From: a virus
Lineage: Duplodnaviria > Heunggongvirae > Uroviricota > Caudoviricetes
Reading direction: 5' to 3' (one strand)
IMG/VR virus record: IMGVR_UViG_2913128013_000001
Span: 1 to 34,296 of that record
DNA length: 34,296 nucleotides
The translations under genes and the position numbers were made by a program. The notes beneath the pieces are model-generated. The model saw only the letters and a list, made by a program, of their open reading frames with translations, searched no databases and was not told the DNA's origin. Below, one piece after another: positions 1-34,296 of the stretch. Position 1 is the stretch's first letter. Each line of letters starts with the position of its first letter.

Positions 1-996
1 TTATGGACGCATTATGGACATTCCTGACACCGGGTTAAGAGTCACAGCATCTTGTAAGAAATCCGGTGCAAAGTGTGCGTAGGTCATAGTTTGCTGAATG
101 TTAGAATGACCCAGGATGCGCTGCAATGTGATTATGTTACCTCCATTCATTATAAAATGTGTGGCAAATGTATGCCTCAAAACATGTACTGCTTGTCCGT
201 CAGGTAAATCGGGTTTTACTTCCCGGAGAGCGTTACGCACTTTGTAGTAACTGGCATTAAAAAGCCTGCCTGAATTTTTGGTCTTGATCCGTTTAATCAG
301 ATCCTGCGAAACGGGAATTGTCCTGCGCTTTCCGTTTTTAGTTTTCATAAACGTAACCATCTGGTTAATGATGTGTTCAGCTTTTAAATTAGACACTTCA
401 CTCCAGCGTCCACCAGTAGAAAGGCAGACCAGCGTTGCATTTAATTCATCGCCATCAAGCATGGATAACAGCCGCGTAATCTCTTCACTGGACAAAAAAG
501 CCATTTCCGTAACAGCTTCACGTAACCGCTTCACCTCACGGAACGGGTTGTGAGAGTGGTATTCACCGGCGTCAATTAACTTGGTGAACATCCCGCTCAT
601 TATTGCCAGATGCCGATTTACGCTGGCTGGTTTTAGACCATCGTTCATCATTACAACGCGATAATCAGTTATCGTTTTCTTTGTTAGCTGGTCTGCTCTG
701 GACACTCCCATTTCTGCAAATTTGGCGATTATTGTCGTTAAACGCCCTCGTTCAATATCTCCACGCTCATGTGATTTTCCGTGATAGATCCACCATCTGC
801 CTAATAACTCTGTAAGAGTTCGGCGGTCGGCTGGCTTCTCTAACCACTCTTTGTTGTGGTAGTTAACCAGCACATGACGTTCGAATGCCTGAGCTTCACC
901 TTTAGTTTTAAATTTCCGCCTGATACGTTTTCCATCTGCACCCTGCGGTCTGACGTCCACTTCATAACGACCATCATCGAGCTTTTTAATAGACAT
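1..996 (-). CDS. int: Tyrosine-type site-specific integrase (P2 Int-like), 331 aa
   Basis: Complete ORF with stop at 1-3. C-terminal half carries the tyrosine recombinase signature (HVLRHTFATHF...GHSNIQQTMTYAHF). Sits next to the repressor on the same strand, as in P2. Confidence 0.9.
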   Translation of the reverse strand: MSIKKLDDGRYEVDVRPQGADGKRIRRKFKTKGEAQAFERHVLVNYHNKEWLEKPADRRTLTELLGRWWIYHGKSHERGDIERGRLTTIIAKFAEMGVSRADQLTKKTITDYRVVMMNDGLKPASVNRHLAIMSGMFTKLIDAGEYHSHNPFREVKRLREAVTEMAFLSSEEITRLLSMLDGDELNATLVCLSTGGRWSEVSNLKAEHIINQMVTFMKTKNGKRRTIPVSQDLIKRIKTKNSGRLFNASYYKVRNALREVKPDLPDGQAVHVLRHTFATHFIMNGGNIITLQRILGHSNIQQTMTYAHFAPDFLQDAVTLNPVSGMSIMRP

Positions 997-1089
997 AAAG
1001 CCCTCCGATGACGCTGTTTACTTTTACTACTTGAAAATTAATGCAATTTTCTATCGTACATTTACTGCACACATATGCTGAATAAATCG

Positions 1090-1401
1090 TCAGCCAGTCT
1101 TTTGGTCTGAGTGGTGCAAGGTTGTTGAGTCTTGCCCAATGTGCGCGAGCGCCGGGGCTATTTGTCCGCCAGCGGGATCAGTTTCATCAAACATAAACCA
1201 GTCACGGTACTTGCGAAATCTTTCTGGCTTGAAAAATTTCATACCTGCGTCAAAAGACATCTTTACTTTTCCCTGCTCATATCCAGCATAGGTGTTGTAG
1301 TTAATCCCAGTTAATTCAGCGACTTGCTTCCTTGTCATCCTTTCTGACTCCCTAATAAGTGCGAGCTTCTCTGCTTGAGATGTGATTTGTGTATTTGACA
1401 T
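1090..1401 (-). CDS. C: Immunity repressor C (P2 C-like), about 103 aa
   Basis: Start chosen at MSNTQITSQ (ATG at 1399-1401) rather than the upstream ORF extension. HTH region (RKQVAELTGINYNTYAGYEQGK) and C-terminal tail GQIAPALAH...QKTG match my recollection of the P2 C protein. Confidence 0.8.
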   Translation of the reverse strand: MSNTQITSQAEKLALIRESERMTRKQVAELTGINYNTYAGYEQGKVKMSFDAGMKFFKPERFRKYRDWFMFDETDPAGGQIAPALAHIGQDSTTLHHSDQKTG

Positions 1402-1505
1402 GAATTGTCGTATCTCGTAATTTATGTTGCATGCGACAAGCCAAAACAACGCAGAGCGGCTTCAAATAGCTCTGGTTGAATGGCACCAAAGTTGAGGATA
1501 TCAAA
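1402..1505. promoter_or_regulatory. Lysis/lysogeny switch region with expected face-to-face promoters (Pc leftward, Pe rightward) and repressor/Cox operators
   Basis: 104-bp AT-rich interval between divergently oriented C and cox starts. Inferred by analogy to the P2 switch; individual operators were not identified. Confidence 0.4.
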
Positions 1506-1862
1506 ATGAGTATTGGATCAGAAATGAATAACGATGTTGGAGAAAAAGTATCTGATCTCACAAAAAGTAAAAAATGTGACATCAAGCTCGCTGCCGCACC
1601 GTCGGATCTACTCTCGAAAGAGGGTTTTGCTCTTTACATCGGTAAGACGCCTCGCGCTGTAGCTGAAATGGCGAAAGCAGGCAAGCTGCCTGCCTTTTAC
1701 ATGGCAGACCCATTAAAGCCGGGAGGTCATGCTGAGTTATGGATTAATCGTCGTGAGTGGGACAAGTACGCAGCACAGCTAGTCGATGAAGCTCCATCAG
1801 AATGGCACGACTGGAAAAATCGCATTAGTTATAGCAAATCAAGACATGGCCGTGCGGCTTAA
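1506..1862 (+). CDS. cox: Cox-like regulatory protein / excision directionality factor, 118 aa
   Basis: First gene of the rightward early operon, opposite C. RBS GAGGA about 8 nt upstream of the ATG at 1506. Position and small basic DNA-binding character fit Cox, but it is longer than the 91-aa P2 Cox. Confidence 0.55.
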   Translation: MSIGSEMNNDVGEKVSDLTKSKKCDIKLAAAPSDLLSKEGFALYIGKTPRAVAEMAKAGKLPAFYMADPLKPGGHAELWINRREWDKYAAQLVDEAPSEWHDWKNRISYSKSRHGRAA

Positions 1863-1872
1863 GGTGGAAAGG

Positions 1873-2043
1873 ATGAAGGAGCCGCGTTGTATTGCTCAGT
1901 TATTGCGTAACGAAAGCCCCAGGGCGATTGACTTCACCATCACCCACGGGAAGGGACGCAAGGGAATCATTATCCGCACCAAAAAACAGAGTCCGTTAAA
2001 GAAGGCTCTGACCTTTCTGAAAAGCCGGAGGGTCTGGAAATGA
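1873..2043 (+). CDS. Small hypothetical early protein, 56 aa (P2 orf78 position)
   Basis: ATG at 1873 preceded by RBS GGTGGAAAGG. Stop overlaps the B start (ATGA at 2040-2043). Confidence 0.4.
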   Translation: MKEPRCIAQLLRNESPRAIDFTITHGKGRKGIIIRTKKQSPLKKALTFLKSRRVWK

Positions 2044-2540
2044 CAGTGATGACACTTAATCTCGTCGAAAAACAGCCAGCAACTATGCGCCGGATAATTG
2101 GTAAGCATCTGGCCGTCCCTCGCTGGCAGGAGACATGTGATTATTATAATCAGATGATGGAACGCGAACGGTTAACGGTTTGCTTCCATGCGCAGTTAAA
2201 ACAACGTCACGCAACGATGCGTTTTGACGAAATGAACGACGTCGAACGTGAACGGCTGGTTTGTGCAATTGATGAACTGCGTGGGGCATTCTCAAAACGC
2301 CGTCAGGTTGGTGCAAGTGAGTATGCATATATTAGTTTTTTAACCGTCAGTCAGCGCCGTACATTATTTATGCATGCCGGATTGACAGAAAAAGAATTTA
2401 ACCAGCCATACTGGCGAATTAATGAAGAGTCATGTTACTGGCGTGATGCTTTATTCCGTGCATTACGTGAATTATTCAGTCTGTTTGAGTATGCACCGAC
2501 AATTCTGACGTCGGTAAAACCAGAGCAATATCTGCATTAA
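2040..2540 (+). CDS. B: Replication protein B (helicase-loader-like), 166 aa
   Basis: 166-aa ORF starting MTVMTLNLVEKQ; same size and position as P2 gpB between cox and A. Confidence 0.8.
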   Translation: MTVMTLNLVEKQPATMRRIIGKHLAVPRWQETCDYYNQMMERERLTVCFHAQLKQRHATMRFDEMNDVERERLVCAIDELRGAFSKRRQVGASEYAYISFLTVSQRRTLFMHAGLTEKEFNQPYWRINEESCYWRDALFRALRELFSLFEYAPTILTSVKPEQYLH

Positions 2541-2603
2541 GTAATTAACCAGAGTTTTTAACGCACTTAATTGTGCGGGACTTCTTTTTGCCTGGAGAAA
2601 GTC

Positions 2604-2828
2604 ATGCATAGAGTTTCTGAAAATCAGAGCGGTAAATACGCATTACTGCTGCAACAGGCCAGAACCGAAGCACAGGCCGACGCAGCGACGCGCTTTTCTT
2701 CTCATCTTGACGCCATGATTCGCCAAATCACAAAGGCGGAGTTATCCCGCGTGGAGATAGTCGAGCTGCTCAGTCAGGAGTCGGAAAATTTTCACAATAT
2801 CGGATTGTCTCGCGGGGAGGTGCTTTGA
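2604..2828 (+). CDS. Hypothetical early protein, 74 aa (P2 orf80 position)
   Basis: ATG at 2604 preceded by GGAGAAAG. Stop overlaps the next start. Confidence 0.5.
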
Positions 2829-3127
2829 TGTCCTGTTCTCGTTCAATTGTATTACTGAATAACGCCTTAAAAATCGCCGTTATGGAAAATGGCGATTTGT
2901 CTCTTATTCAACTTTGTCTTGATAAAGAAAAGCGCGACATAACTGAATCTGTTATCGCGATTTATCAGAGTGAATTAAATCTCCTGTCTGATGTGGTCAA
3001 TTTACTTGTTAAACGCGCTGTATTTCACAAGCAAATTTCCACCGTGGATGAACTGACAAAATTAACGACAGAAATCGCCAGTTATTGCGCTGATGTATCC
3101 AGGAAACTTAACGATAAAAGGAGCTGA
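2828..3127 (+). CDS. Hypothetical early protein, 99 aa (P2 orf81 position)
   Basis: ATG at 2828 preceded by GGGAGG; translationally coupled to the upstream ORF. Confidence 0.5.
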   Translation: MSCSRSIVLLNNALKIAVMENGDLSLIQLCLDKEKRDITESVIAIYQSELNLLSDVVNLLVKRAVFHKQISTVDELTKLTTEIASYCADVSRKLNDKRS

Positions 3128-3129
3128 TA

Positions 3130-3354
3130 ATGCCGGACAACGTAGATTTTATTCAGGAACAACAGGCTGAATTACTGGAGCGCCAGATTAACGCGGCAAG
3201 GGTAAAACATTGCGGTGCTTCTGCGCTGGTTTGCGAAGAGTGTGACGCGCCAATACCTGCTGCCCGTCGTGCGGCTTACCCGTCAGCCACGCGTTGTGTT
3301 TCCTGTCAGTCAGTCTTTGAAGCAAAAAACAAACATTACCGGAGAACGGCATGA
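3130..3354 (+). CDS. TraR/DksA-family C4 zinc-finger protein, 74 aa (P2 orf82 position)
   Basis: Four-cysteine motif CEECDAPIP...RCVSCQ in a 74-aa protein. RBS AAAAGGAG upstream of the ATG. Confidence 0.7.
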   Translation: MPDNVDFIQEQQAELLERQINAARVKHCGASALVCEECDAPIPAARRAAYPSATRCVSCQSVFEAKNKHYRRTA

Positions 3355-3626
3355 GTATTCGTATTGAAATTGGCGAACGTTATGTCGTTACCAGTGACAG
3401 CTTTCAGTTTATTCTCCACGAGAAAAAGAGAGCGGAAAGCGGTAAAAACGCCGGTCAGGAATGGCTGGCGGTGGTTGGTTATTACCCGAAATTAAGCCAG
3501 CTCGTTTCCGGCCTGATGCATCACGATATTCTGACCGGAAGCGCAAAGTCTTTTGCTGATTTAAACGCGCAGGTTGAGCAACTCAGCAAGCGTTGTTCAG
3601 AGGCTTTTGGCTCATATGGCCGTTAA
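3351..3626 (+). CDS. Hypothetical early protein, 91 aa (P2 orf83 position)
   Basis: ORF overlapping the preceding stop (ATGA) and the A start. Confidence 0.5.
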   Translation: MSIRIEIGERYVVTSDSFQFILHEKKRAESGKNAGQEWLAVVGYYPKLSQLVSGLMHHDILTGSAKSFADLNAQVEQLSKRCSEAFGSYGR

Positions 3627-5922
3627 AGCCTCCGGGCGTTTTGTCCCTCCGTCAGCATTTGCCGCAGGCACCGGTAAGACGTTTACCGGTGCTTATGCAT
3701 GGAACGCGCCACGCGAGGCTGTCGGGCGCGAAAGACCTCTTACACGTGACGAGATGCGTCAGGTGCAAGGTGTTTTATCCACGATTAACCGCCTGCCTTA
3801 TTTTTTGCGCTCGCTGTTTACTTCACGCTATGACTACATCCGGCGCAATAAAAGCCCGGTGCACGGGTTTTATTTCCTCACATCCACTTTTCAGCATCGT
3901 TTATGGCCGCGCATTGAGCGCGTGAATCAGCGCCATGAAATGAACACCGACGCGTCGTTGCTGTTTCTGGCAGAGCGTGACCACTATGCGCGTCTGCCGG
4001 GGATGAATGACAAGGAGCTGAAAAAGTTTGCCGCCCGTATTTCATCGCAGCTTTTCATGATGTATGAGGAACTCTGCGATGCCTGGGTGGATGCGCATGG
4101 CGAAAAAGAATCACTGTTTACGGATGAGGCGCAGGATCATCTGTATGGTCATGTTGCTGGCGCTGCACGTGCTTTCAATATTTCCCCGCTCTACTGGAAA
4201 AAATACCGTAAAGGACAGATAACCACGAGGCAGGCATATTCTGCCATTGCCCGTCTGTTTAACGATGAGTGGTGGACTCATCAGCTTAAAGGCCAGCGTA
4301 TGCGCTGGCATGAGGCGTTACTGATTGCTGTCGGGGAGGTCAATAAAGACCGTTCTCCTTATGCCAGTAAACATGCCATTCGTGATGTGCGTGCACGCCG
4401 CCAGGCAAATCTGGAGTTTCTTAAATCGTGTGACCTTGAAAATAAGGAAACCGGCGAGCGCATTGACCTTATCAGTAAGGTGATGGGCAGTATTTCTAAT
4501 CCTGAAATTCGCCGGATGGAGCTGATGAATACCATTGCCGGTATTGAGCGTTACGCCGCTGCAGAGGGTGATGTGGGGATGTTTATCACGCTGACCGCGC
4601 CGTCAAAGTATCACCCGACACGTCAGGTCGGAAAAGGCGAAAGTAAAACCGTCCAGCTAAATCACGGCTGGAACGATGAGGCATTTAATCCAAAGGATGC
4701 GCAGCGTTATCTCTGCCGTATCTGGAGCCTGATGCGCACGGCATTCAAGGATAATGATTTACAGGTCTACGGTTTGCGAGTCGTCGAGCCACACCACGAC
4801 GGAACGCCGCACTGGCATATGATGCTTTTTTGTAATCCACGCCAGCGTAACCAGATTATCGAAATCATGCGTCGCTATGCGCTCAAAGAGGATGGCGACG
4901 AAAGAGGAGCCGCGCGAAACCGTTTTCAGGCAAAACACCTTAACCGGGGCGGTGCTGCGGGGTATATCGCTAAATACATCTCAAAAAATATCGACGGCTA
5001 TGCACTGGATGGTCAGCTCGATAACGATACCGGCAGGCCGCTGAAAGACACTGCAGCGGCTGTTACCGCATGGGCGTCAACGTGGCGTATCCCGCAATTT
5101 AAAACGGTTGGTCTGCCGACAATGGGGGCTTACCGTGAACTACGCAAATTGCCTCGTGGCGTCAGCATTGCTGATGAGTTTGACGAACGCGTCGAGGCTG
5201 CACGCGCCGCCGCAGACAGTGGTGATTTTGCGTTGTATATCAGCGCGCAGGGTGGGGCAAATGTCCCGCGCGATTGTCAGACTGTCAGGGTTGCCCGTAG
5301 CCCGTCGGATGACGTTAACGAGTATGAGGAAGAAGTCGAGAGAGTGGTCGGCATTTACGCGCCGCATCTCGGCGCGCGTCATATTCATATCACCAGAACC
5401 ACGGACTGGCGCATTGTTCCGAAAGTTCCGGTCGTTGAGCCTTTGACTTTAAAAAGCGGCATCGCCGCGCCTCGGAGTCCTGTCAATAACTGTGGAAAGC
5501 TCACCGGTGGTGATACTTCATTACCGGCTCCCACGCCTTCTGAGCACGCCGCAGCAGTGCTTAATCTGGTTGATGACGGTGTTATCGAATGGAATGACCC
5601 GGAGGTCGTGAGGGCGCTCAGGGGCGCATTAAAACACGGGCTGAGAACACCAAATCGTCAGCAGAGAAACGGAAGCCCGTTAAAACAGTATGAAATGGCA
5701 CCATCGGCCAGACTGACCCGGTCGGAACGAGTGCAATTTACCCGTATCCGCGTTGACCTCGCTCAGAACGGTATCAGGCCGCAGCGATGGGAGCTTGAGG
5801 CGCTGGCGCGTGGAGCAACCGTAAATTATGACGGGAAAAAATTCACGTATCCGGTCGCTGATGAGTGGCTGGGATTCTCAACAGTAATGGAGTGGACATT
5901 ATGGCAAAAATTCACGAGGTAA
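3616..5922 (+). CDS. A: Replication initiation protein A (rolling-circle endonuclease), 768 aa
   Basis: Start chosen at MAVKASGRF (ATG 3616). Large protein with an HUH-type signature (EPHHDGTPHWHMMLF) and the AAGYIAKYISKN motif typical of rolling-circle initiators; size and position match P2 gpA. Confidence 0.85.
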   Translation: MAVKASGRFVPPSAFAAGTGKTFTGAYAWNAPREAVGRERPLTRDEMRQVQGVLSTINRLPYFLRSLFTSRYDYIRRNKSPVHGFYFLTSTFQHRLWPRIERVNQRHEMNTDASLLFLAERDHYARLPGMNDKELKKFAARISSQLFMMYEELCDAWVDAHGEKESLFTDEAQDHLYGHVAGAARAFNISPLYWKKYRKGQITTRQAYSAIARLFNDEWWTHQLKGQRMRWHEALLIAVGEVNKDRSPYASKHAIRDVRARRQANLEFLKSCDLENKETGERIDLISKVMGSISNPEIRRMELMNTIAGIERYAAAEGDVGMFITLTAPSKYHPTRQVGKGESKTVQLNHGWNDEAFNPKDAQRYLCRIWSLMRTAFKDNDLQVYGLRVVEPHHDGTPHWHMMLFCNPRQRNQIIEIMRRYALKEDGDERGAARNRFQAKHLNRGGAAGYIAKYISKNIDGYALDGQLDNDTGRPLKDTAAAVTAWASTWRIPQFKTVGLPTMGAYRELRKLPRGVSIADEFDERVEAARAAADSGDFALYISAQGGANVPRDCQTVRVARSPSDDVNEYEEEVERVVGIYAPHLGARHIHITRTTDWRIVPKVPVVEPLTLKSGIAAPRSPVNNCGKLTGGDTSLPAPTPSEHAAAVLNLVDDGVIEWNDPEVVRALRGALKHGLRTPNRQQRNGSPLKQYEMAPSARLTRSERVQFTRIRVDLAQNGIRPQRWELEALARGATVNYDGKKFTYPVADEWLGFSTVMEWTLWQKFTR

Positions 5923-6353
5923 AGCTGCACGCAAAATATTTCGACCTTGTGCTGGAAGGAAAGAAACGCGCAGAGTTTCGGAAAAATGACCGTAATTATG
6001 AGCGCGGGGACACGTTGATTTTGCATGAATGGGTGCAGGGTGTGTATACGGGGCGAAAGGTTGAAGCCCGGATAACAGATGTTACTGACCTGTCAGACTG
6101 GCTGGAAGATTATGTCTTGCTAAGTATTGAGCTGCTTAATACAGGTGCATATGAGATTGTGAACTGGAAAGAACTTAGTGAGCGTGGCCTGGTATTCAGA
6201 ATTAATCATGAAATTATGCATCAGCTCGGCCTTGCTGTTATGTATGAACCAGAGACGGGGATGTCTGGCGGGGCAATGGTTGCCACGGATGGAGCATGGA
6301 ACTATTCAGATGAACAGATTGAGCGTGCACAGCAAAACGGGTGGCTTGGATAA
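5901..6353 (+). CDS. ASCH/DUF3850-like (PUA-fold) protein, 150 aa
   Basis: ATG at 5901 with GGAG 8 nt upstream. N-terminus MAKIHEVKLHAKYFDLVLEGKKRAEFRKNDRNYERGDTLILHEW resembles the ASCH/DUF3850 family, from recollection. Confidence 0.55.
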   Translation: MAKIHEVKLHAKYFDLVLEGKKRAEFRKNDRNYERGDTLILHEWVQGVYTGRKVEARITDVTDLSDWLEDYVLLSIELLNTGAYEIVNWKELSERGLVFRINHEIMHQLGLAVMYEPETGMSGGAMVATDGAWNYSDEQIERAQQNGWLG

Positions 6354-6559
6354 TGCACAGAATACCAGGTGAGATACCGCACCATAAAACTAAAAATATC
6401 AAGCTGATGGCTATTGTTCAGCGTTTGCAGCAGATTATGGTCAACGAAAATCTGACGCCCGATGAGCTGGTCGGGTGTGCCGAAATAGTCCGGGATAATT
6501 ACGGGCGGCTTAACGATATCGGTCAGTCCAGAGTTATGCCACCACCACGCAGACGATAG
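6353..6559 (+). CDS. Small hypothetical protein, 68 aa
   Basis: ORF starting at an ATG overlapping the previous stop (TAATG). No recognisable motif. Confidence 0.3.
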   Translation: MHRIPGEIPHHKTKNIKLMAIVQRLQQIMVNENLTPDELVGCAEIVRDNYGRLNDIGQSRVMPPPRRR

Positions 6560-6788
6560 AGAACGCCGCCAGTCGTGAAACTTGTTTTCAGGGCTGGCGG
6601 GGTTGAACAACGAGCGAAGCGAGGCGTTAGTTGACAGTCATATTTTTACTGCGTTGGTGCTGGTTTTTGACGGTTGAAAGGAGTTAGCTCGGAGAGCTAA
6701 AGCTAACAACTTACAAATATTCAAAAGTAAGCTTCCTGTTGTTAACATAAGGTCGATTTTTTATGTGGATGATGCAAAAAGGATAGCT

Positions 6789-7520
6789 ATGGATACTGTA
6801 ATCGCTTTTCTATCACTCGCTTTTTTCGTTGCTTTTTTCATCGGGTTAATCAAACCATCACTGGTGCGGATGCCGAACCGTAAACGTGCAAGTGCGGTTT
6901 ATCTCGGAGGAGGTTTTGTATTGAGCATAATTGGTTCAATACTCTATCCAACAGAAAAAAGCCAGCCAGTTGCTAAAACTGATACATCAACCGTTGCAGA
7001 ACACCAAGTCCAAAAAACATTCGAATATGGTGGAAAAACACTCAAGGAATATCGGAACGAGCCAAAGAAAACTCGACACGATATTGTGAATAGTTACATT
7101 GATTTTAAGAAAGTGCCAGTCACCGCATCAGATGCATTTTATGCCTGCATGAGTGAATATACTTTTACCAAAGATGATGAGTTGAAACTCGGTGATGTTC
7201 TTGGGTGGTGCTTTAATGATTATGAAAATGACCCGAATTCACTAAACAATAAAATCAATCTTGATACATTTCAGAGTAATTTTAGTGGTTGGGATGGTTC
7301 TTATCGTCCATTGGAAAAACTAATTAAAGATAATATGAACGATGATTCATCTTATAAACATGTGTCAACGGTATATCATTTGGTTTTGAATAAAGACCCG
7401 CACGCCATTGTGAAAACCACATTTCGTGGCACTAATGCTTATGGAGGAGTAGTTAAACAGACTATTGCTGCGCGTGTCGACATCCGAACGGGCGAAGTCG
7501 TTTCAGTATTAGATAACTAA
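6789..7520 (+). CDS. Membrane-anchored hypothetical protein, 243 aa (cargo island A, gene 1)
   Basis: ATG at 6789 with AAGGA 6 nt upstream. Two predicted N-terminal transmembrane helices (VIAFLSLAFFVAFFIGLI and VYLGGGFVLSIIGSILYP) followed by a soluble domain of roughly 180 aa. Strongly AT-rich compared with flanking phage genes. Confidence 0.55.
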   Translation: MDTVIAFLSLAFFVAFFIGLIKPSLVRMPNRKRASAVYLGGGFVLSIIGSILYPTEKSQPVAKTDTSTVAEHQVQKTFEYGGKTLKEYRNEPKKTRHDIVNSYIDFKKVPVTASDAFYACMSEYTFTKDDELKLGDVLGWCFNDYENDPNSLNNKINLDTFQSNFSGWDGSYRPLEKLIKDNMNDDSSYKHVSTVYHLVLNKDPHAIVKTTFRGTNAYGGVVKQTIAARVDIRTGEVVSVLDN

Positions 7521-7523
7521 TCG

Positions 7524-7585: not shown

Positions 7586-7632
7586 TACAGGAGTAATTAC
7601 CTTGACTGTAAGTTGCTTTTATTGAGGGAACT

Positions 7633-25284: not shown

Positions 25285-27312
25285 TTACTGAAGTAAAACA
25301 TTCATTCTTTCTCTCCGATAATCCACAAGTTGTTCAATATCGCTCTCAAGACTTTCTATCCCAAAAGCAACTGAATCACTAATTTGTAGAGTGTGTTTTT
25401 TGACAACAGTGCTTTCAAAAAACTCATTTAATTGAATTGGTTTTTCAAATTGTTTAATTAAGTCAGAGGCTTGAAGCGTATTATTTTCCCATAATTTATG
25501 CATGGGGTGATTTGTGGACGTTAACGTACCATATTCATTTCTTACTTTAATTCCACTTATATGACTATTGTGCAGTATTTTGCTAAGTGCCGAATAGTCA
25601 GTTACATACACCCCATAGTATTTCCCAGGAAGTGAGAATGGAAGGTTGTTGACAATTACTGGTATAATTTCAAAGTTATTAATATCAAGGCCAAATTTAT
25701 CGCTGAATACATCCTGGTGTTTTTTTAGACCATCAGCAAGTCTGATAACTTGATTAGCTGCGTCAATTAAAAACATTTTCTTCTTGAATGCTTTAGTTAC
25801 AGAACCACCGGATAAATTTGTATTTTTACATTCCAGAACAAATACTTTATCATCTAATACAATTATTGCATCATACTCATATTCTTCATTCTCTCTTTTG
25901 AACTTAAAATGCTGATGATTTATTTTTAAATCAGAGAGCATTTCGTGGATCTCTTTTTCAAAACCAAATCCTTTTTGGGAAAGATCTACTTTTAGTGATG
26001 AGAACTTTGATAATATAATGTTACTTATTCCAGGGCTGAAATAGCCAATACTACAGAATAGATAATCTCCAGATTTCATTTTTAAAAGAGGAGAATCATA
26101 AAGGTCACGGGATTCATTGTTAAAGCTAGCCAAATCAATAAATAGCTTTGATTTATTACCAGGTATACCAACTAATTGTAAATATGTGCTCAATTCCGAT
26201 GAAGTAAATACTTCTCTTTTTTCCGATATTTTGGATAGTCTTTCTAGCGCGGAGTAACACCTAACCCATTCACGCAGTGTTAAACCAAAAATTAACATGC
26301 TCTCATCAGTTAAACATAGAGTCTCGAGTAGTGCTACATATGCCGGAAACTCTGATGTCGTTATTGAATAACCGTTATTAATATCTGCAAGCCTAGTTAA
26401 ATTTTCATCTACTGTTTTATGGACATTATGTTTATACAACGCCTCCATGAAGTTCTGTGATAACTTTGAATACAGCCTTTCATTTGACATGTAATCCAAT
26501 CTTATGAATTGTTCTTTAGTTAGATTAAATTCATAGAATGTCTCAAGACCAGCGTTCTCTAATCCATTAGGTAAGTTTGTAGAGGTATATTCATTTAATT
26601 CATAATCAAATAGCAGGCATGTTTCTACAGAACGCTCTAAAGAAGACCACAGTATCGAATTGTAAAATATTACCCCAGCATCATTAATATCATCTTCCTT
26701 AACATCTACCATGTCAGGAATTACAATGAAACCCCCACTATTTAACTTATAATTAAAGCCAATCATCTTCAAACTAAGAGATAGATAATCGACTGTTTTG
26801 GATATTACAACATCAGGAGAGTATGATTCACCTTGTTTGTTTTTTAAGTATGCGGTAGAAATATCAAACAATTTTGGTTCCCGGTTAATGCTCTCTAGAT
26901 ATTTCTTTGTTTCGTTTTTTAAAAAATCTATCTCACCTTGCGCCCGTCTTATTATAGCCCAACACTGTATTTCCGGCGTTTTTTTGCTGATGGGTAAGCT
27001 TGATAAGTTAGATTTAATAACATCAAATATTTTTTCCGCACAAATACATAGTTTTTTAAGGTTATCTATTTTTTGTATTAAATCAGGGACACTTGTAGCT
27101 CCTTTTAAGTCGGTGAGGAATGAATTTCTTTTTTCCCGTAAATTCACATTGTGGGGTTGTATATTGATGTTTTTTTTAAACATCGCAAAAAGGAAACGAA
27201 GTATTTTATCATTATAATTCTGTTTTAACTGTATCACTATGTTCTTTGACTTGAATTTGCAATAGTCGATTTCTAACGTTTTATAGATATTTTCTGCATG
27301 TGATTGTGACAT
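25285..27312 (-). CDS. Large hypothetical protein with C-terminal PD-(D/E)xK nuclease-like motif, 675 aa (cargo island B)
   Basis: ATG at 27310-27312 with AAGG RBS. Very AT-rich, opposite strand to the phage late genes. Motif GFGFEKEIHE (E452/E454)...YDAIIVLDDKVFVLECK (D481, D487/D488, E494, K496). No Walker A motif. Confidence 0.6.
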   Translation of the reverse strand: MSQSHAENIYKTLEIDYCKFKSKNIVIQLKQNYNDKILRFLFAMFKKNINIQPHNVNLREKRNSFLTDLKGATSVPDLIQKIDNLKKLCICAEKIFDVIKSNLSSLPISKKTPEIQCWAIIRRAQGEIDFLKNETKKYLESINREPKLFDISTAYLKNKQGESYSPDVVISKTVDYLSLSLKMIGFNYKLNSGGFIVIPDMVDVKEDDINDAGVIFYNSILWSSLERSVETCLLFDYELNEYTSTNLPNGLENAGLETFYEFNLTKEQFIRLDYMSNERLYSKLSQNFMEALYKHNVHKTVDENLTRLADINNGYSITTSEFPAYVALLETLCLTDESMLIFGLTLREWVRCYSALERLSKISEKREVFTSSELSTYLQLVGIPGNKSKLFIDLASFNNESRDLYDSPLLKMKSGDYLFCSIGYFSPGISNIILSKFSSLKVDLSQKGFGFEKEIHEMLSDLKINHQHFKFKRENEEYEYDAIIVLDDKVFVLECKNTNLSGGSVTKAFKKKMFLIDAANQVIRLADGLKKHQDVFSDKFGLDINNFEIIPVIVNNLPFSLPGKYYGVYVTDYSALSKILHNSHISGIKVRNEYGTLTSTNHPMHKLWENNTLQASDLIKQFEKPIQLNEFFESTVVKKHTLQISDSVAFGIESLESDIEQLVDYRRERMNVLLQ

Positions 27313-27694: not shown

Positions 27695-28885
27695 ATGAGT
27701 GACTATCATCACGGCGTGCAGGTGCTGGAGATTAACGACGGCACCCGCGTCATTTCCACCGTATCCACTGCCATTGTCGGCATGGTCTGCACGGCCAGCG
27801 ATGCGGATGCGGAAACCTTCCCCCTCAATAAACCGGTGCTGATTACCAATGTGCAGAGCGCAATTGCAAAGGCTGGTAAAAAAGGCACGCTGGCGGCGTC
27901 GTTGCAGGCCATCGCTGACCAGTCAAAACCAGTCACCGTTGTCGTGCGTGTTGAAGACGGCACCGGCGACGACGAGGAAACGAAACTCGCGCAGACCGTT
28001 TCCAATATCATCGGCACCACTGACGAAAACGGTCAGTACACCGGACTGAAAGCCCTGATGGGGGCTGAGTCGGTTACCGGCGTTAAACCGCGCATTCTTG
28101 GTGTGCCGGGGCTGGACACCAAAGAGGTTGCCGTCGCACTGGCATCGGTATGCCAGGAACTGAATGCATTCGGGTATATCAGCGCATGGGGCTGTAAAAC
28201 CATTTCCGAGGTGAAAGCCTACCGCCAGAATTTCAGCCAGCGTGAGCTGATGGTCATCTGGCCGGATTTCCTCGCATGGGATACGGTCACCAGCACCACC
28301 GCCACCGCGTATGCCACCGCCCGTGCGCTGGGTCTGCGCGCTAAAATCGACCAGGAGCAGGGCTGGCATAAAACGCTGTCCAACGTCGGGGTAAACGGTG
28401 TTACCGGCATCAGCGCATCTGTATTCTGGGATTTGCAGAAGTCCGGCACTGATGCTGACCTGCTGAACGAGGCAGGCGTCACAACGCTGGTTCGCCGCGA
28501 CGGTTTCCGTTTCTGGGGTAACCGTACCTGCTCCGATGACCCACTGTTCCTCTTTGAAAGCTACACACGCACCGCGCAGGTACTGGCTGACACGATGGCT
28601 GAGGCGCACATGTGGGCTATTGATAAGCCCATCACCGCAACGCTGATTCGCGACATCGTTGACGGCATCAATGCCAAATTCCGTGAACTGAAAAGCAACG
28701 GTTATATCGTGGATGGCACATGCTGGTTCAGTGAAGAAGCCAATGATGCGGAAACCCTCAAGGCCGGAAAACTGTATATCGACTACGACTACACCCCGGT
28801 GCCTCCTCTCGAAAACCTGACCCTGCGCCAGCGTATTACTTCAAGATACCTGGCAAGTCTGGTCACCTCGGTTAACAGCAATTAA
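27695..28885 (+). CDS. FI: Contractile tail sheath protein, 396 aa
   Basis: 396 aa, the same size as P2 gpFI; GGAG RBS; first gene of the FI-FII-E-T-U-D operon. Confidence 0.9.
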   Translation: MSDYHHGVQVLEINDGTRVISTVSTAIVGMVCTASDADAETFPLNKPVLITNVQSAIAKAGKKGTLAASLQAIADQSKPVTVVVRVEDGTGDDEETKLAQTVSNIIGTTDENGQYTGLKALMGAESVTGVKPRILGVPGLDTKEVAVALASVCQELNAFGYISAWGCKTISEVKAYRQNFSQRELMVIWPDFLAWDTVTSTTATAYATARALGLRAKIDQEQGWHKTLSNVGVNGVTGISASVFWDLQKSGTDADLLNEAGVTTLVRRDGFRFWGNRTCSDDPLFLFESYTRTAQVLADTMAEAHMWAIDKPITATLIRDIVDGINAKFRELKSNGYIVDGTCWFSEEANDAETLKAGKLYIDYDYTPVPPLENLTLRQRITSRYLASLVTSVNSN

Positions 28886-28897
28886 GGAGCCTGACCG

Positions 28898-29416
28898 ATG
28901 GCAATGCCGCGCAAACTCAAGTTAATGAACGTCTTTCTGAACGGCTACAGCTATCAGGGCGTTGCAAAGTCCGTCACGCTGCCAAAACTGACCCGTAAGC
29001 TCGAAAACTATCGCGGTGCGGGGATGAACGGCAGCGCACCGGTAGACCTCGGCCTTGATGACGATGCGCTGTCAATGGAGTGGTCGCTCGGTGGCTTCCC
29101 GGATTCGGTTATCTGGGAGCTTTACGCCGCAACCGGTGTGGATGCCGTGCCGATTCGTTTTGCAGGCTCTTACCAGCGCGACGATACCGGCGAAACGGTG
29201 GCCGTCGAAGTGGTCATGCGTGGACGTCAGAAAGAAATCGACACCGGCGAGGGTAAACAGGGAGAAGACACCGAGTCGAAAATCTCCGTGGTCTGCACCT
29301 ATTTCCGGCTGACGATGGACGGTAAGGAGCTGGTCGAAATCGACACCATCAACATGATTGAGAAGGTGAACGGCGTCGACCGGCTGGAGCAACACCGCCG
29401 CAATATCGGCCTGTGA
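28898..29416 (+). CDS. FII: Tail tube protein, 172 aa
   Basis: 172 aa, same size and position as P2 gpFII. Confidence 0.9.
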   Translation: MAMPRKLKLMNVFLNGYSYQGVAKSVTLPKLTRKLENYRGAGMNGSAPVDLGLDDDALSMEWSLGGFPDSVIWELYAATGVDAVPIRFAGSYQRDDTGETVAVEVVMRGRQKEIDTGEGKQGEDTESKISVVCTYFRLTMDGKELVEIDTINMIEKVNGVDRLEQHRRNIGL

Positions 29417-29472
29417 TTTTCATCCGGTCAGCCTGGCTGACCGGTTAACCCTGATTCAGAAGTGAGAAAACC

Positions 29473-29748
29473 ATGAACAAAGAAAATGTCATTACCCTGG
29501 ACAATCCGGTTAAACGTGGTGAGCAGGTTATCGAACAGGTCACGCTGATGAAACCTAATGCCGGGACGCTGCGCGGTGTCAGTCTGGCAGCGGTCGCGAA
29601 CTCCGAAGTCGATGCACTGATTAAGGTGCTGCCGCGCATGACGGCACCGATGCTGACCGAGCAGGAAGTCGCCGCGCTGGAACTGCCTGACCTTGTGGCG
29701 CTGGCCGGTAAGGTGGTCGGTTTTTTGTCGCCGAACTCGGTGCAGTGA
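29473..29748 (+). CDS. E: Tail assembly chaperone E, 91 aa
   Basis: 91 aa directly upstream of the tape measure gene; ends ...VVGFLSPNSVQ with a TTTTTTG slippery site near its 3' end. Confidence 0.8.
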   Translation: MNKENVITLDNPVKRGEQVIEQVTLMKPNAGTLRGVSLAAVANSEVDALIKVLPRMTAPMLTEQEVAALELPDLVALAGKVVGFLSPNSVQ

Positions 29749-29900
29749 CGTTTCCGAAAAATCTGTCGGTCGATGACCTGATGGCGGATGTGGCAGTGGT
29801 ATTTCACTGGCCGCCATCAGAACTGTATCCCATGAGCCTGACCGAACTCATCACATGGCGCGAAAAGGCGCTCAGGCGAAGCGGAAACACGAATGAGTAA
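29473..29900 (+). CDS. E': E+E' fusion produced by programmed -1 frameshift at T TTT TTG (29721-29727)
   Basis: After a -1 slip at 29721-29727 the reading frame stays open to TAA at 29898-29900, overlapping the T start. Mirrors the known P2 E/E' arrangement. Confidence 0.6.
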
Positions 29901-32340
29901 CAATGTAAAATTACAGGTATTGCTCAGGGCTGTTGACCAGGCATCCCGCCCGTTTAAATCCATCCGCACAGCGAGTAAGTCGCTGTCGGGGGATATCCGG
30001 GAAACACAAAAATCACTGCGCGAGCTGAACGGTCACGCATCCCGTATTGAGGGATTCCGCAAGACCAGTGCACAGCTCGCCGTGACTGGTCATGCACTTG
30101 AAAAGGCACGGCAGGAGGCCGAAGCCCTTGCCACACAGTTTAAAAACACCGAACGCCCGACCCGTGCTCAGGCGAAAGTGCTGGAATCCGCAAAGCGTGC
30201 GGCGGAGGACTTACAGGCGAAATATAACCGCCTGACGGATTCCGTTAAACGCCAGCAGCGGGAGCTGGCCGCTGTGGGAATTAATACCCGCAATCTTGCA
30301 CATGATGAGCAGGGACTGAAAAACCGTATCAGTGAAACCACCGCACAGCTTAACCGTCAGCGTGATGCGCTGGCGCGTGTCAGTGCGCAACAGGCAAAAC
30401 TTAACGCAGTAAAACAGCGTTATCAGGCCGGAAAGGAACTGGCCGGAAATATGGCCTCAGTGGGCGCTGCCGGTGCGGGGATTGCGGCGGCGGGAACGAT
30501 GGCCGGTGTTAAGCTGCTGATGCCCGGTTATGAGTTTGCGCAGAAAAACTCAGAATTACAGGCCGTGCTCGGAGTGGCAAAAGACTCTGCCGAAATGGCC
30601 GCGCTCCGCAAGCAGGCGCGCCAGCTCGGCGATAATACCGCCGCCTCGGCGGATGATGCGGCCGGTGCGCAGATTATCATTGCGAAAGCGGGTGGAGATG
30701 CTGCGGCTATTCAGGCGGCAACGCCGGTCACGCTGAATATGGCACTGGCGAATCAGCGGTCGATGGAAGAAAACGCGCAACTGTTGCTGGGGACTAAGGC
30801 ATCCTTTCAACTGTCAAATGATGATGTCAGCCATGTGGGCGACGTGTTGTCTGCAACGATGAATAAGTCGGCGGCTGATTTTCAGGGACTCAGTGATGCA
30901 CTGACTTACCTCGGGCCGGTTGCGAGGACGGCAGGCGTAAGTCTTGAGCAGGCAGCGGCCATGACAGGTGTGCTGCATGACAATAACATCAGGGGGTCAA
31001 TGGCGGGTACGGGTAGTAGTGCCGTTGTCACCCGATTACAGGCACCGACTGGAAAAGCATGGGATGCACTCAAAGAGCTTGGCGTTAAAACCTCGGACAA
31101 AAAGGGAAATATGCGTCCGTTGTTCACCATTCTGAAAGAGATTCAGGCCAGCTTTGATAAACACAAGCTGGGAACGTCTCAGAAGGGGGAATACCTTAAA
31201 ACCATTTTTGGTGAGGAAGCCCTGAAATCAGCGAACGTTTTACTGGCAGCGGCAGCAAGCGGAAAACTGGATAAGCTGACCGCCACGCTGAAAGCCTCGG
31301 ACGGTAAAACGGAAGAGCTGGTTAAAATCATGCAGGACAACCTCGGCGGTGACTTTAAGGAGTTTCAGTCCGCTTATGAGGCTGTGGGGACTGACCTGTT
31401 TGACCAGCAGGAAGGCGCACTGCGTAAGCTCACGCAGACGGTCACAAAGTATGTGTTAAAACTCGACGGCTGGATCCAGAAAAACAAATCACTGGCGTCA
31501 ACCATCGGCGTCATTGTCGGTGGTGCACTGGCACTGATTGGTGTCATCGGTGCCATTGGCCTCGTAGCCTGGCCGGTTATCACCGGCATCAATGCCATCA
31601 TCGCGGCAGCAGGCGCAATGGGTGCAATCTTCACGACGGTTGGCAGTGCTGTTATGACGGCCATCGGGGCGATTAGCTGGCCGGTTGTGGCCGTGGTGGC
31701 CGCCATTGTCGCCGGGGCGTTACTTATCCGTAAATACTGGGAGCCTGTCAGCGCATTCTTTGGCGGTGTGGTAGAAGGGCTGAAAGCGGCATTTGCGCCT
31801 GTGGGGGAACTGTTCACGCCACTTAAGCCGGTGTTTGACTGGCTGGGCGAAAAGTTACAGGCCGCGTGGCAGTGGTTTAAAAACCTGATTGCCCCGGTCA
31901 AAGCCACCCAGGACACCCTGAACCGTTGCCGTGACACGGGCGTCCTGTTCGGGCAGGCACTGGCTGACGCGCTGATGCTGCCGCTTAATGCGTTCAACAA
32001 ACTGCGCAGCGGTATTGACTGGGTACTGGAAAAACTCGGTGTTATCAACAAAGAGTCAGACACACTTGACCAGACCGCCGCCAGAACTCAAGCCGCCACG
32101 TATGGCAGCGGTGGTTATATTCCGGCGACCAGCTCTTATGCAGGCTATCAGGCTTATCAGCCGGTCACGGCACCGGCTGGCCGCTCTTATGTAGACCAGA
32201 GTAAAAACGAATATCACATCAGCCTGACGGGTGGTACTGCGCCGGGGACACAGCTTGACCGCCAGTTACAGGATGCGCTCGAAAAATACGAGCGGGATAA
32301 ACGTGCGCGCGCCCGTGCCAGCATGATGCATGACGGTTAA
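29893..32340 (+). CDS. T: Tail tape measure protein, 815 aa
   Basis: 815 aa, largely alpha-helical with a central hydrophobic Gly/Ala-rich segment; position matches P2 gpT. Confidence 0.85.
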   Translation: MSNNVKLQVLLRAVDQASRPFKSIRTASKSLSGDIRETQKSLRELNGHASRIEGFRKTSAQLAVTGHALEKARQEAEALATQFKNTERPTRAQAKVLESAKRAAEDLQAKYNRLTDSVKRQQRELAAVGINTRNLAHDEQGLKNRISETTAQLNRQRDALARVSAQQAKLNAVKQRYQAGKELAGNMASVGAAGAGIAAAGTMAGVKLLMPGYEFAQKNSELQAVLGVAKDSAEMAALRKQARQLGDNTAASADDAAGAQIIIAKAGGDAAAIQAATPVTLNMALANQRSMEENAQLLLGTKASFQLSNDDVSHVGDVLSATMNKSAADFQGLSDALTYLGPVARTAGVSLEQAAAMTGVLHDNNIRGSMAGTGSSAVVTRLQAPTGKAWDALKELGVKTSDKKGNMRPLFTILKEIQASFDKHKLGTSQKGEYLKTIFGEEALKSANVLLAAAASGKLDKLTATLKASDGKTEELVKIMQDNLGGDFKEFQSAYEAVGTDLFDQQEGALRKLTQTVTKYVLKLDGWIQKNKSLASTIGVIVGGALALIGVIGAIGLVAWPVITGINAIIAAAGAMGAIFTTVGSAVMTAIGAISWPVVAVVAAIVAGALLIRKYWEPVSAFFGGVVEGLKAAFAPVGELFTPLKPVFDWLGEKLQAAWQWFKNLIAPVKATQDTLNRCRDTGVLFGQALADALMLPLNAFNKLRSGIDWVLEKLGVINKESDTLDQTAARTQAATYGSGGYIPATSSYAGYQAYQPVTAPAGRSYVDQSKNEYHISLTGGTAPGTQLDRQLQDALEKYERDKRARARASMMHDG

Positions 32341-32354
32341 GGAGGTGACGAAAA

Positions 32355-32834
32355 ATGATGCTCGCGTTAGGTATGTTTGTTTTTATGCGCCAGACGCTGC
32401 CACACCAGACCATGCAGCGTGAATCAGATTATCGCTGGCCGTCAAATTCCCGTATCGGCAAACGGGATGCCTTTCAATTTCTCGGTGTGGGTGAGGAAAA
32501 CATCACGCTTGCCGGTGTGCTTTATCCCGAACTGACCGGCGGAAAGCTGACGATGACCACGCTCAGGCTGATGGCGGAGGAAGGCCGGGCGTGGCCGTTG
32601 CTGGATGGCACTGGCATGATTTACGGCATGTATGTCATCAGCAGGGTGAGTGAAACAGGGAGTATTTTCTTTGCAGACGGCACACCCCGAAAAATTGATT
32701 TTACGCTGTCGCTCACCCGCGTTGATGAATCACTGGCCGCGCTGTATGGCGATATCGGTAAACAGGCGGAATCGCTCATCGGTAAGGCTGGCAGTATGGC
32801 GACCAGATTCACGGGTATGACGGGGGCGGGATAA
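32355..32834 (+). CDS. U: Tail protein U, 159 aa
   Basis: 159 aa between T and D, as in P2. Confidence 0.85.
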   Translation: MMLALGMFVFMRQTLPHQTMQRESDYRWPSNSRIGKRDAFQFLGVGEENITLAGVLYPELTGGKLTMTTLRLMAEEGRAWPLLDGTGMIYGMYVISRVSETGSIFFADGTPRKIDFTLSLTRVDESLAALYGDIGKQAESLIGKAGSMATRFTGMTGAG

Positions 32835-34000
32835 TGCTGGATGCGCTGACATTTGATGCAGGCAGTACGCTGACGCCGGATTACATGCTGATGCTCGACA
32901 GCAGGGATATTACCGGCAATATCAGCGACCGTCTGATGAGCATGACCCTGACGGATAACCGGGGCTTTGAGGCTGACCAGCTTGATATTGAACTGAACGA
33001 TGCCGACGGGCAGGTCGGGCTGCCGATTCGTGGCGCTGTCCTGACGGTGTATATCGGCTGGAAAGGTTTTGCCCTGGTATGCAAAGGGAAATTTACCGTT
33101 GATGAGGTTGAACACAGGGGCGCGCCGGATGTGGTCACCATCCGCGCCCGGAGTGCAGATTTTCGCGGGACGCTCAATTCCCGCCGTGAAGGCTCATGGC
33201 ATGACACCACACTCGGTGCGATTGTTGAGGCGATAGCCTCCCGTAACAAGCTGGAAGCCAGTGTCGCTCCGCCACTGGCCGGAATTAAAATCCCGCACAT
33301 CGACCAGTCGCAGGAGTCTGATGCGAAATTCCTGACCCGTCTTGCTGAACGCAACGGCGGCGAGGTGTCGGTAAAAATGGGAAAACTGTTGTTTCTCAAA
33401 GCGGGGCAGGGGGTGACGGCCAGCGGTAAAAAAATCTCGCAGGTCACCATCACCCGCAGCGACGGCGACCGTCATCATTTTGCGATTGCTGACCGTGGAG
33501 CCTATACCGGTGTAACGGCAAAGTGGTTACACACCAAAGACCCGAAACCGCAAAAGCAGATGGTAAAACTGAAACGCAAAAAGAAAGAGAAACACCTGCG
33601 CGCACTGGAGCACCCGAAAGCGAAACCGGTCACGCAGAAGAAAGCGCCAAAAGTACCGGAGGCGCGCGAAGGTGAATACATGGCCGGTGAAGCTGACAAC
33701 GTTTTTGCCCTGACCACGGTATATGCCACGAAAGCGCAGGCCATGCGTGCCGCTCAGGCGAAGTGGGATAAACTGCAACGGGGCGTTGCGGAGTTCTCCA
33801 TCAGCCTGGCTACCGGTCGTGCTGATATTTACACGGAAACACCGGTCAGAGTGTCAGGCTTTAAGCGCGTCATAGACGAGCAGGACTGGACAATCACTAA
33901 GGTGACACATTTTCTGAATAATAGCGGCTTCACGACGTCCTTAGAGCTTGAGGTCAGGCTTTCTGACGTGGAGTACGAAACAGAAGATGATGAGCAATGA
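32834..34000 (+). CDS. D: Tail protein D (late control gene D-type), 388 aa
   Basis: 388 aa, overlapping the U stop; last gene of the tail operon, as in P2. Confidence 0.85.
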   Translation: MLDALTFDAGSTLTPDYMLMLDSRDITGNISDRLMSMTLTDNRGFEADQLDIELNDADGQVGLPIRGAVLTVYIGWKGFALVCKGKFTVDEVEHRGAPDVVTIRARSADFRGTLNSRREGSWHDTTLGAIVEAIASRNKLEASVAPPLAGIKIPHIDQSQESDAKFLTRLAERNGGEVSVKMGKLLFLKAGQGVTASGKKISQVTITRSDGDRHHFAIADRGAYTGVTAKWLHTKDPKPQKQMVKLKRKKKEKHLRALEHPKAKPVTQKKAPKVPEAREGEYMAGEADNVFALTTVYATKAQAMRAAQAKWDKLQRGVAEFSISLATGRADIYTETPVRVSGFKRVIDEQDWTITKVTHFLNNSGFTTSLELEVRLSDVEYETEDDEQ

Positions 34001-34077
34001 GTTGTTTTATCTATTTGTTTTATAAGGATAAAATAACTAAAATGGCACCATCAACAAAACCGGAAGAGGTGCTCGCG

Positions 34078-34296
34078 ATGTTTCATTGTCCTTTATGCCA
34101 GCATGCCGCACATGCGCGTACAAGCCGCTATATCACTGACACGACAAAAGAGCGTTATCACCAGTGTCAGAACGTGAATTGCAGCGCCACGTTCATCACT
34201 TATGAGTCGGTACAGCGATACATCGTGAAGCCGGGAGAAGTCCACGCCGTAAGGCCGCACCCATTGCCGTCAGGGCAGCAAATTATGTGGATGTAA
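34078..34296 (+). CDS. ogr: Late gene transcriptional activator Ogr (zinc finger), 72 aa
   Basis: Start at MFHCPLCQHAAHARTSRY (ATG 34078). 72 aa with a C-x2-C...C-x4-C zinc-binding arrangement; matches my recollection of P2 Ogr. Confidence 0.85.
   Translation: MFHCPLCQHAAHARTSRYITDTTKERYHQCQNVNCSATFITYESVQRYIVKPGEVHAVRPHPLPSGQQIMWM

Follow-up and report, generated by a model that had tools for sequence, protein, structure and literature searches.

A P2-like prophage integrated at pflA in an Escherichia genome, with low-GC cargo genes at both hotspots

Gene content and cis-acting sites of the prophage

The DNA analyzed here comprises positions 1 to 34,296 of the IMG/VR record IMGVR_UViG_2913128013_000001 (34,296 nucleotides (nt) in all, hereafter the window), and by its sequence it is an intact-looking P2-type (Peduovirus) prophage, an ordinary object of an already well-known kind. 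Its membership of the P2-like group was evident from the collinear P2 order over the int-C-cox module, the early replication genes, cos, the Q and P genes, the O, V, and F late operons, and ogr. A megablast search with the window returned 196 phage records, almost all of them Peduovirus and far above chance. The window is 100% identical to RHJJ01000010.1:49684-83979 (GCA_004212225.1, an unclassified Escherichia sp.), where it forms the interior of a 381,651-base pair (bp) chromosomal contig, flanked by pflA next to int and, next to ogr, by the 3' end of pflB and then focA. This exact genome was not present in the collection of 5426 complete E. coli genomes that was searched, the best matches there being ~98%. 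No RNA genes were detected in the window with Rfam at gathering thresholds or with ARAGORN. Gene content, gene integrity, cis-acting sites, att sites, and nuclease signatures were read directly from the sequences. The backbone genes and sites are listed below, with protein lengths in amino acids (aa).

1-996, minus strand: int, tyrosine integrase of 331 aa with PhiD145-type specificity (Pfam Int_N and Phage_integrase)
1090-1401, minus strand: C immunity repressor, 103 aa (48% identical to P2 C; helix-turn-helix Pfam matches)
1402-1505, no strand assigned: C-cox switch region with putative Pe and Pc promoters and operators (P2-like layout)
1506-1862, plus strand: cox, excisionase and Pc repressor, 118 aa (Pfam Phage_Cox, E=2e-29; Cox family in related genomes)
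1873-6353, plus strand: early operon with orf78, B, orf80-83, A, and the Orf91-like gene (89-100% identical to P2 proteins)
3616-5922, plus strand: A, with the ori nick region at 5462-5487 identical to P2
5901-6353, plus strand: Orf91-like protein with ASCH/DUF3850 and DUF7415 (Pfam domains)
9059-9077, plus strand: cos, the 19-nt cohesive-end sequence GGCGAGGCGGGGAAAGCAC, identical to P2 (0 chance matches expected)
9220-9241, minus strand: tQ terminator, identical to P2
9247-12053, minus strand: Q (portal) and P (large terminase), 96% and 99.7% identical to P2
12117-12147, plus strand: Ogr activator site of the divergent pO/pP late promoters, 31 of 31 positions identical to P2
12227-18427, plus strand: O operon with O, N, M, L, X, Y, K, lysA, lysB, lysC, R, and S (95-100% identical, full length), serving capsid, small terminase, lysis, and tail completion
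18494-24116, plus strand: V operon, comprising the baseplate genes V, W, J, and I with 91-99% identity to P2, and the fibre genes H and G (Pfam tail-fibre, Collar, and Caudo_TAP domains)
20920-23538, plus strand: H, 872-aa tail fibre
23538-24116, plus strand: G, 192-aa fibre assembly protein
27695-34000, plus strand: F operon with FI, FII, E, T, U, and D (sheath, tube, chaperones, tape measure, and tail; 92-100% identical to P2)
29719, plus strand: E/E' -1 frameshift site GGTTTTTTG, with the surrounding 31 nt identical to P2
~34015-34044, plus strand: ogr promoter, with 2 mismatches to P2
34078-34296, plus strand: ogr, 72-aa zinc-finger activator of the late genes (72 of 72 residues identical to P2 Ogr)

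All 42 proteins of P2 (NC_001895) were searched against the window with tblastn. Single full-length matches in P2 prophage order, with 89-100% aa identity, were obtained for Q, P, O, N, M, L, X, Y, K, lysA, lysB, lysC, R, and S, and likewise for V, W, J, I, FI, FII, E, T, U, D, ogr, B, A, and orf78/80/81/82/83. Each of the 38 backbone open reading frames (ORFs) runs from ATG to stop without internal stops, and the DNA is collinear with that of P2 in blocks of 91-98% identity. An earlier note on this DNA had described the backbone genes as present, in P2 order, and intact, which these searches bore out. Agreement with P2 is confined to the replication, head, lysis, baseplate, and tail genes, and the note's remark that sizes deviate from P2 by no more than a few codons has exceptions. 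The A protein has 768 aa compared with 761 in P2, H has 872 compared with 669 and is conserved over the N-terminal 207 aa only, and G has 192 compared with 175 at 40% identity. The Orf91-like protein (150 aa, compared with 109) loses similarity to P2 after residue 75 and carries an extra C-terminal DUF7415 domain, while Cox (91 aa in P2, 34% identity) and Int (337 aa in P2, 53% identity) differ in length as well.

Gene orf30 is missing, leaving an S-V gap of 66 bp (18427-18494), and relatives that lack orf30 share the short gap. Within this spacer lie a GC-rich (rich in guanine and cytosine) hairpin and a TGT-N12-ACC sequence that differs from the P2 pV activator site. No counterpart of old, tin, or fun(Z) was found in the window by tblastn at E<=1e-5. 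The annotation of the source contig includes a 51-aa GpE ORF that overlaps E, and the programmed -1 frameshift feature is present. In the window, ogr is the next gene after D, and no further gene follows it.

The lysogeny module is different from that of P2, as are the tip of the tail fibre and its chaperone. Int is identical at 330 of 331 residues to that of the isolated phage P24A7b, and its R..HxxR..H..Y recombinase motifs align with those of P2 Int. The C protein is 75% identical to C of P24A7b, and the differences cluster in its N-terminal half; divergence from P24A7b extends to the operator region and to the 5' half of cox. This pattern implies that the phage shares the integration specificity of P24A7b and that its immunity type has been swapped for another, the recombination breakpoints falling within C and cox. 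As in P2, the start codon of C is overlapped by a TTGACA-17-TAATTT sequence, and the switch is of the P2 type rather than the 186 type, with a short C gene transcribed away from cox. Repressors of the P2 C type do not respond to the SOS signal, so this phage would be expected not to respond to SOS induction, and a negative mitomycin C result would not indicate decay. Because the lysogeny switch is of the P2 type and the replication, packaging, and lysis genes and the Ogr-dependent late operons are intact, the phage would most likely be viable.

Attachment sites and insertion at pflA

The flanks of the window were read on the source contig. A 13-bp att core, ACCAATAACTGAC, is present as a direct repeat at both junctions, the left copy 90 bp outside the window (-103..-91) and the right copy 113 bp outside (34410..34422), and the window falls short of the outer core edges by 103 bp on the left and 126 bp on the right. 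The 90 bp on the left are the phage P' arm. The 113 bp on the right are phage DNA too, made up of the ogr/F-operon terminator, whose stem has the same sequence as that of P2, and the P arm. With one core copy counted, the full prophage is 34,512 bp long. Several claims of the earlier note are settled by these positions. As it had stated, the window opens with the stop codon of int (TTA at bases 1-3, read on the minus strand) and closes with that of ogr (TAA in the final three bases). An intact-looking integrated prophage is likewise what was found; the claim that its ends coincide with those of the window was not upheld, since the window is clipped at coding-sequence boundaries and phage DNA continues outside. 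As a consequence, the window lacks the att sites and the Int/IHF/Cox arms on which integration and excision depend, together with the terminator of ogr. The prediction that attL and attR lie in the directly flanking host DNA was correct in placing them just outside the window and incorrect as to the adjoining DNA, which is still phage, the host beginning beyond the cores. The check that the note had proposed, for a flanking att repeat and a host locus, yielded both: the 13-bp direct repeat and pflA.

An alignment of attB, attP, attL, and attR, drawing on K-12 and P24A7b, shows a clean reciprocal BOB'/POP'/BOP'/POB' exchange at the core. The empty K-12 site corresponds to the left part of attL joined to the right part of attR, and the 216-bp ogr-int intergenic region of P24A7b to the left part of attR joined to the right part of attL. 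The core overlaps nucleotides 3-15 of pflA (ATGTCAGTTATTGGT), that is, codons 1-5. The native pflA promoter, ribosome-binding site, and ATG are left at attR, 34.5 kb away, and at attL the body of pflA continues in frame from an ATG and 20 further codons that the phage supplies, MSNLTNCNTTENTA(A/T)AGATK. The resulting chimeric PflA', as called by annotation pipelines, has 265 aa compared with 246 aa for the native protein. All seven lysogens examined have this fusion frame; in the free phage, the short ORF just stops after the core. Int and PflA' share a strand, the new PflA' start codon coming 31 nt downstream of the int stop. We infer that PflA' is transcribed through read-through of the C-int transcript, and integration probably places it under prophage transcription.

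These features suggest the following course of events. The PhiD145-type tyrosine integrase would recombine within the core ACCAATAACTGAC and insert the phage at pflA codons 1-5, and the P' arm would supply the new ATG and the 20-residue N-terminal extension, giving a PflA' of 265 aa directly downstream of int. The locus is a clean and fully delimited case in which a phage enters the 5' end of pflA, a gene of an essential pathway, and rebuilds the gene with phage-encoded codons. The arrangement is not confined to this genome: the int-pflA junction is the same in six more independent assemblies, and 391 of the 5426 complete E. coli genomes match the int-C-cox module over 80% or more of the query, at ~98% identity.

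The integration site of PhiD145 and PhiD160 has been given as MG1655 position 950293 (PMC3448106 Table 1; Nilsson and Haggard-Ljungquist 2011). In NC_000913.3, pflA occupies 950340-951080. A genome-version shift of ~777 bp would place position 950293 about 10 nt inside pflA, within its first 15 nt. On this match, which depends on the ~777-bp shift, the integration site is the published PhiD145-type site and not a new one. A direct report of a P2-like phage at pflA was not found in the literature searched, and the link to PhiD145 comes from PMC3448106 Table 1.

Cargo genes at the two hotspots

Two islands of cargo genes sit exactly at the two classical P2 cargo positions, between orf91 and cos (hotspot 1) and between G and FI (hotspot 2), with GC contents of 0.375 and 0.35, respectively, compared with 0.536 for the backbone.

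6353-6559, plus strand: 68-aa ORF (phrog_11386)
6789-7520, plus strand: 243-aa protein with two N-terminal hydrophobic segments (phrog_3403)
7633-8922, plus strand: 429-aa coiled-coil protein with a predicted PD-(D/E)xK-like core (phrog_14906)
24436-24939, plus strand: 167-aa protein with two predicted transmembrane segments (hydropathy profile)
25285-27312, minus strand: 675-aa protein, helical in its N-terminal region, with a NERD / PD-(D/E)xK nuclease domain at the C-terminal side (Pfam NERD)

Such hotspots are reported to be reservoirs of anti-phage systems (PMC9122126, Rousset et al. 2022), and 19% of P2-like elements carry only genes without known function at their defence loci (PMC13586616, NAR 2026). 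The low-GC genes would have been acquired horizontally, in place of old/tin and fun(Z). Searches of the cargo proteins against PADLOC 2.0, NCBIfam, and PDB sequences returned no match for any of them, and the NERD domain of the 675-aa protein was the only Pfam match.

The three ORFs of hotspot 1 all belong to PHROG families without assigned function. Right behind the 68-aa ORF, at ~6561-6603, lies a strong GC-rich hairpin. Transcription of the early operon may end here, before it reaches the hotspot-1 cargo, and in that case the cargo would depend on promoters of its own. A promoter candidate, TTGATG-16-TG-TATACT, was noted at 7524-7551. GC skew is strongly positive (0.22-0.40) over 7000-9000, which probably reflects purine-rich Lys and Glu codons on the coding strand of AT-rich genes. 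The 243-aa gene also occurs in P24A7b (gp46), next to a different neighbouring gene, and the representative of its protein cluster, WP_115435142, is recorded as 'hypothetical' in a P2 hotspot locus (Rousset 2022 Table S5).

The 429-aa protein belongs to a large family. A word-indexed search recovered 24 clusters, and an exhaustive profile search recovered 1381 representatives (50% identity) at E<=0.001, 469 of them at E<=1e-30 and nearly all ~400 aa long. Residues E147, D174, E187, K189, R197, and Q201 are invariant across 56 diverse homologues. The structural model (predicted local distance difference test score (pLDDT) 88.6, predicted template modelling score 0.88) consists of a long helical hairpin followed by alpha/beta domains, in which helix 142-156, three short strands, and helix 196-214 would fit a PD-(D/E)xK core. 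The protein itself gave no Pfam, PADLOC, NCBIfam, or PDB match, and the family gave scattered sub-threshold matches only, to PDDEXK_9, Card1_endonuc, CARF_PDDEXK, and Cas4. A comparison of its profile with PDB sequences returned only coiled-coil noise (syntaxin, keratin). In an earlier survey, the 429-aa protein is system #138, with 16 occurrences and no domain, and it is not in the table of tested systems (Rousset 2022 Table S5B). Hotspot-1 cargo of this type is present in 16 of the 5426 complete E. coli genomes. One homologue occupies the P4 defence hotspot in Pluralibacter, the interval from psu to the integrase remnant of a P4-like element, and another, in Vibrio cholerae, adjoins a serine recombinase. 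A distant homologue in Ramlibacter lies 19 nt downstream of a gene with HTH_3 and Peptidase_M78 domains (ImmA/IrrE-like) and adjoins a PemK-like toxin gene; judging from this locus, the protein may in some lineages be part of a regulated two-gene module.

Hotspot 2 consists of two convergent genes with a terminator-like hairpin behind each, at 25106-25118 behind the 167-aa gene and at 25243-25272, with a 13-bp stem, behind the NERD gene, which is transcribed opposite to both flanking late operons. The 167-aa protein had no family matches in Pfam, PADLOC, PHROG, or NCBIfam, and other E. coli genomes that lack the NERD gene carry its gene at ~92% identity. The NERD (PF08378) match of the 675-aa protein scores 23.4 bits, only just above the gathering cut-off of 22.1; the domain was found in 18 of 19 homologues, and E452, D481, E494, K496, and Q521 are invariant across all 19. 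The family is small, with 44 clusters, all from Enterobacterales. Searches of PDB sequences, PADLOC 2.0, and NCBIfam gave no match. The top fold matches of the model (pLDDT 83.9), none of them significant, were Can2/Card1, Bax1, McrC, R2 endonuclease, and arenavirus endonucleases; because these weak matches are all PD-(D/E)xK nucleases, they were treated only as consistent with the Pfam NERD match.

Hotspot 2 with the NERD gene is present in 3 of the 5426 complete E. coli genomes, which are different genomes from those carrying the hotspot-1 cargo, and one NERD-carrying prophage lies at a different chromosomal site. This distribution indicates that the modules are shuffled independently, in line with the account given in PMC13586616. 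Outside these prophages, a NERD homologue adjoins a cyclic-oligonucleotide-based anti-phage signalling system (CBASS) and an integrase fragment in Morganella, another lies beside umuDC and YaaC in Klebsiella, at the end of a prophage, and a third resides on a relaxase-bearing element in Pectobacterium. To judge by their genomic neighbourhoods, the 429-aa and 675-aa genes travel alone and are independently mobile single genes. The 167-aa and 243-aa genes, too, occur with other partners elsewhere, and superinfection exclusion or a similar role is possible for these two putative membrane proteins. Two further relationships were considered and rejected. A common origin of the 429-aa and 675-aa families had a profile-profile probability of 0.2%, and the two are unrelated at the sequence level. 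An operon formed by a large cargo protein and its small membrane-protein neighbour was also set aside, as distant homologues of both large proteins occur without those neighbours.

Terminator-like sites exceed the number in shuffled sequences in hotspot 2 only, with 7 found compared with ~1.7 expected, and the hairpins belonging to the hotspot-2 genes themselves are the only sequence feature that supports expression of the cargo. Promoter scans were at chance level, so promoters, and hence expression, cannot be argued from them. By analogy with old, tin, and fun, the cargo may be expressed from the lysogen, as the earlier note took to be probable.

Weighing of the readings and comparison with known systems

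The best explanation overall, to which we assign a probability of roughly 85%, is that the window is the body of a viable-looking Peduovirus prophage integrated at pflA with acquired low-GC hotspot cargo. One might suppose instead a free phage genome or an assembly artefact, as the window has no host DNA; this idea is refuted, with next to no probability left to it, by the position of the window inside the chromosomal contig between pflA and pflB-focA, at 100% identity, and by the recurrence of the int-pflA junction in the six further independent assemblies. A cryptic (defective) prophage, which would look intact and yet be locked or particle-less as a result of missense mutations or incompatible mosaic modules, is unlikely and carries more weight. 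Candidate incompatibilities are the new C/Cox/operator set, the altered pV and pF activator sites, and the new tail fibre. The immunity region is indeed recombinant relative to the viable P24A7b, and the pV and pF sites, which keep TGT-N12 half-site-like sequences, are not identical to those of P2. Viability, excision, particle formation, and cargo transcription would, moreover, be predictions from sequence, in which missense defects may go unseen. Decay, however, would be expected to leave some frameshifts or deletions over 34 kb, whereas all 38 ORFs are open and of full length and the cis sites tested are identical or near-identical to those of P2. The presence of the int-C-cox module in 391 complete E. 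coli genomes and of a near-identical counterpart of every module in isolated phages also argues for a viable-looking prophage.

The function of the cargo is a separate matter. Neither hotspot carries a recognised system, and we hold, tentatively and at slightly less than even odds, that the two islands contribute two single-gene predicted nuclease defences, not yet described, at least one of which would protect the lysogen by cleaving nucleic acid. For the 429-aa and 675-aa proteins, nuclease-based exclusion of competing phages in the lysogen would be the most likely role, and the cargo genes are plausible defence candidates. The hotspot genes might alternatively have nothing to do with anti-phage defence and encode counter-defence nucleases, enzymes of lytic host DNA degradation, membrane or superinfection-exclusion proteins, addiction modules, or other conversion functions, a broad alternative that we regard as possible and rather doubtful. 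It draws on the lack of a match to known defence models, on the placement of the hotspot-1 cargo on the early-operon strand, which, unlike that of old/tin in P2, makes lytic transcription possible, and on the finding that machine-learning tools flag just 15-32% of uncharacterised P2 hotspot proteins as defensive (PMC13586616). Against it, both large proteins retain intact nuclease signatures and recur as single genes in defence-rich or mobile cargo positions, including the P4 defence hotspot and the neighbourhood of CBASS. The GC-rich hairpin behind the 68-aa ORF stands upstream of the hotspot-1 cargo, and the NERD gene runs opposite to both late operons with a terminator of its own. A precedent for a stand-alone NERD defence effector also exists in ZwsA (Zowangsin) of Pseudomonas aeruginosa, an RNA endonuclease (bioRxiv 10.64898/2026.04.06.716636). 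Several further results weigh against defensive nucleases expressed from a viable lysogen. Searches of the five cargo proteins against PADLOC-DB 2.0 returned 0 families at E<=0.01, and the 56 homologues of the 429-aa protein gave weak scattered matches. Foldseek found no match at E<=0.001 for the 429-aa model in PDB or BFVD or for the 675-aa model in PDB, and the nuclease assignment of the 429-aa protein rests on a motif and sub-threshold matches. Counts of sigma-70 promoter-like sequences around both cargo islands were no higher than in shuffled sequence.

As a prophage, the element is routine, as P2-like elements are found in a large share of E. coli genomes and both the integrase type and the pflA site are already published. 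Besides the rebuilding of pflA, its interest lies mostly in the 429-aa and 675-aa genes, which, with their conserved nuclease signatures and their recurrence in mobile-element cargo slots, are ready-made candidates for defence-system discovery. The 429-aa family in particular is widespread, lacks domain annotation, and has a confident predicted fold without a known relative in PDB or BFVD.

Compared with P2, the prophage has the same gene order, identical cos, ori nick region, E/E' slip site, pO/pP activator site, and tQ, and head, lysis, tail, replication, and Ogr proteins that are 89-100% identical. It differs in the int/C/cox module, the attachment site, the C-terminus of the tail fibre, and G, as well as in the absence of orf30, the DUF7415 domain added to the Orf91-like protein, and the replacement of old, tin, and fun(Z) by other cargo. 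The isolated coliphage P24A7b (Peduovirus, NC_049390) shares Int (330 of 331 residues), attP, the H/G tail-fibre type, and the 243-aa hotspot gene with the prophage, whereas it possesses orf30, has a C protein of 75% identity and a diverged operator, lacks the 429-aa gene, and has other content between G and FI. The P2-like coliphages PhiD145 and PhiD160, likened to the prophage by integration position, would insert at the same first codons of pflA; their site was characterised by Mandali et al. 2010, as cited in PMC3448106.

The cargo can be compared with the Old, Tin, and Fun(Z) genes and with the P2/P4 hotspots in general. There is no sequence relationship, and the hotspot-1 genes point the opposite way to old/tin; the two genomic positions, the low GC content, and the modular cargo of single or few genes are the same. 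Assignment of the 675-aa protein to ZwsA, compared here by its described architecture, was not supported, as only NERD of the VHS, DUF647, NERD, and S4 arrangement was detected in the family, the other three domains going undetected in 19 of 19 members. What the two have in common is a large single protein with NERD in its C-terminal half, in which E535/D567/E580/K582 of ZwsA have their counterparts in E452/D481/E494/K496 of the 675-aa protein.

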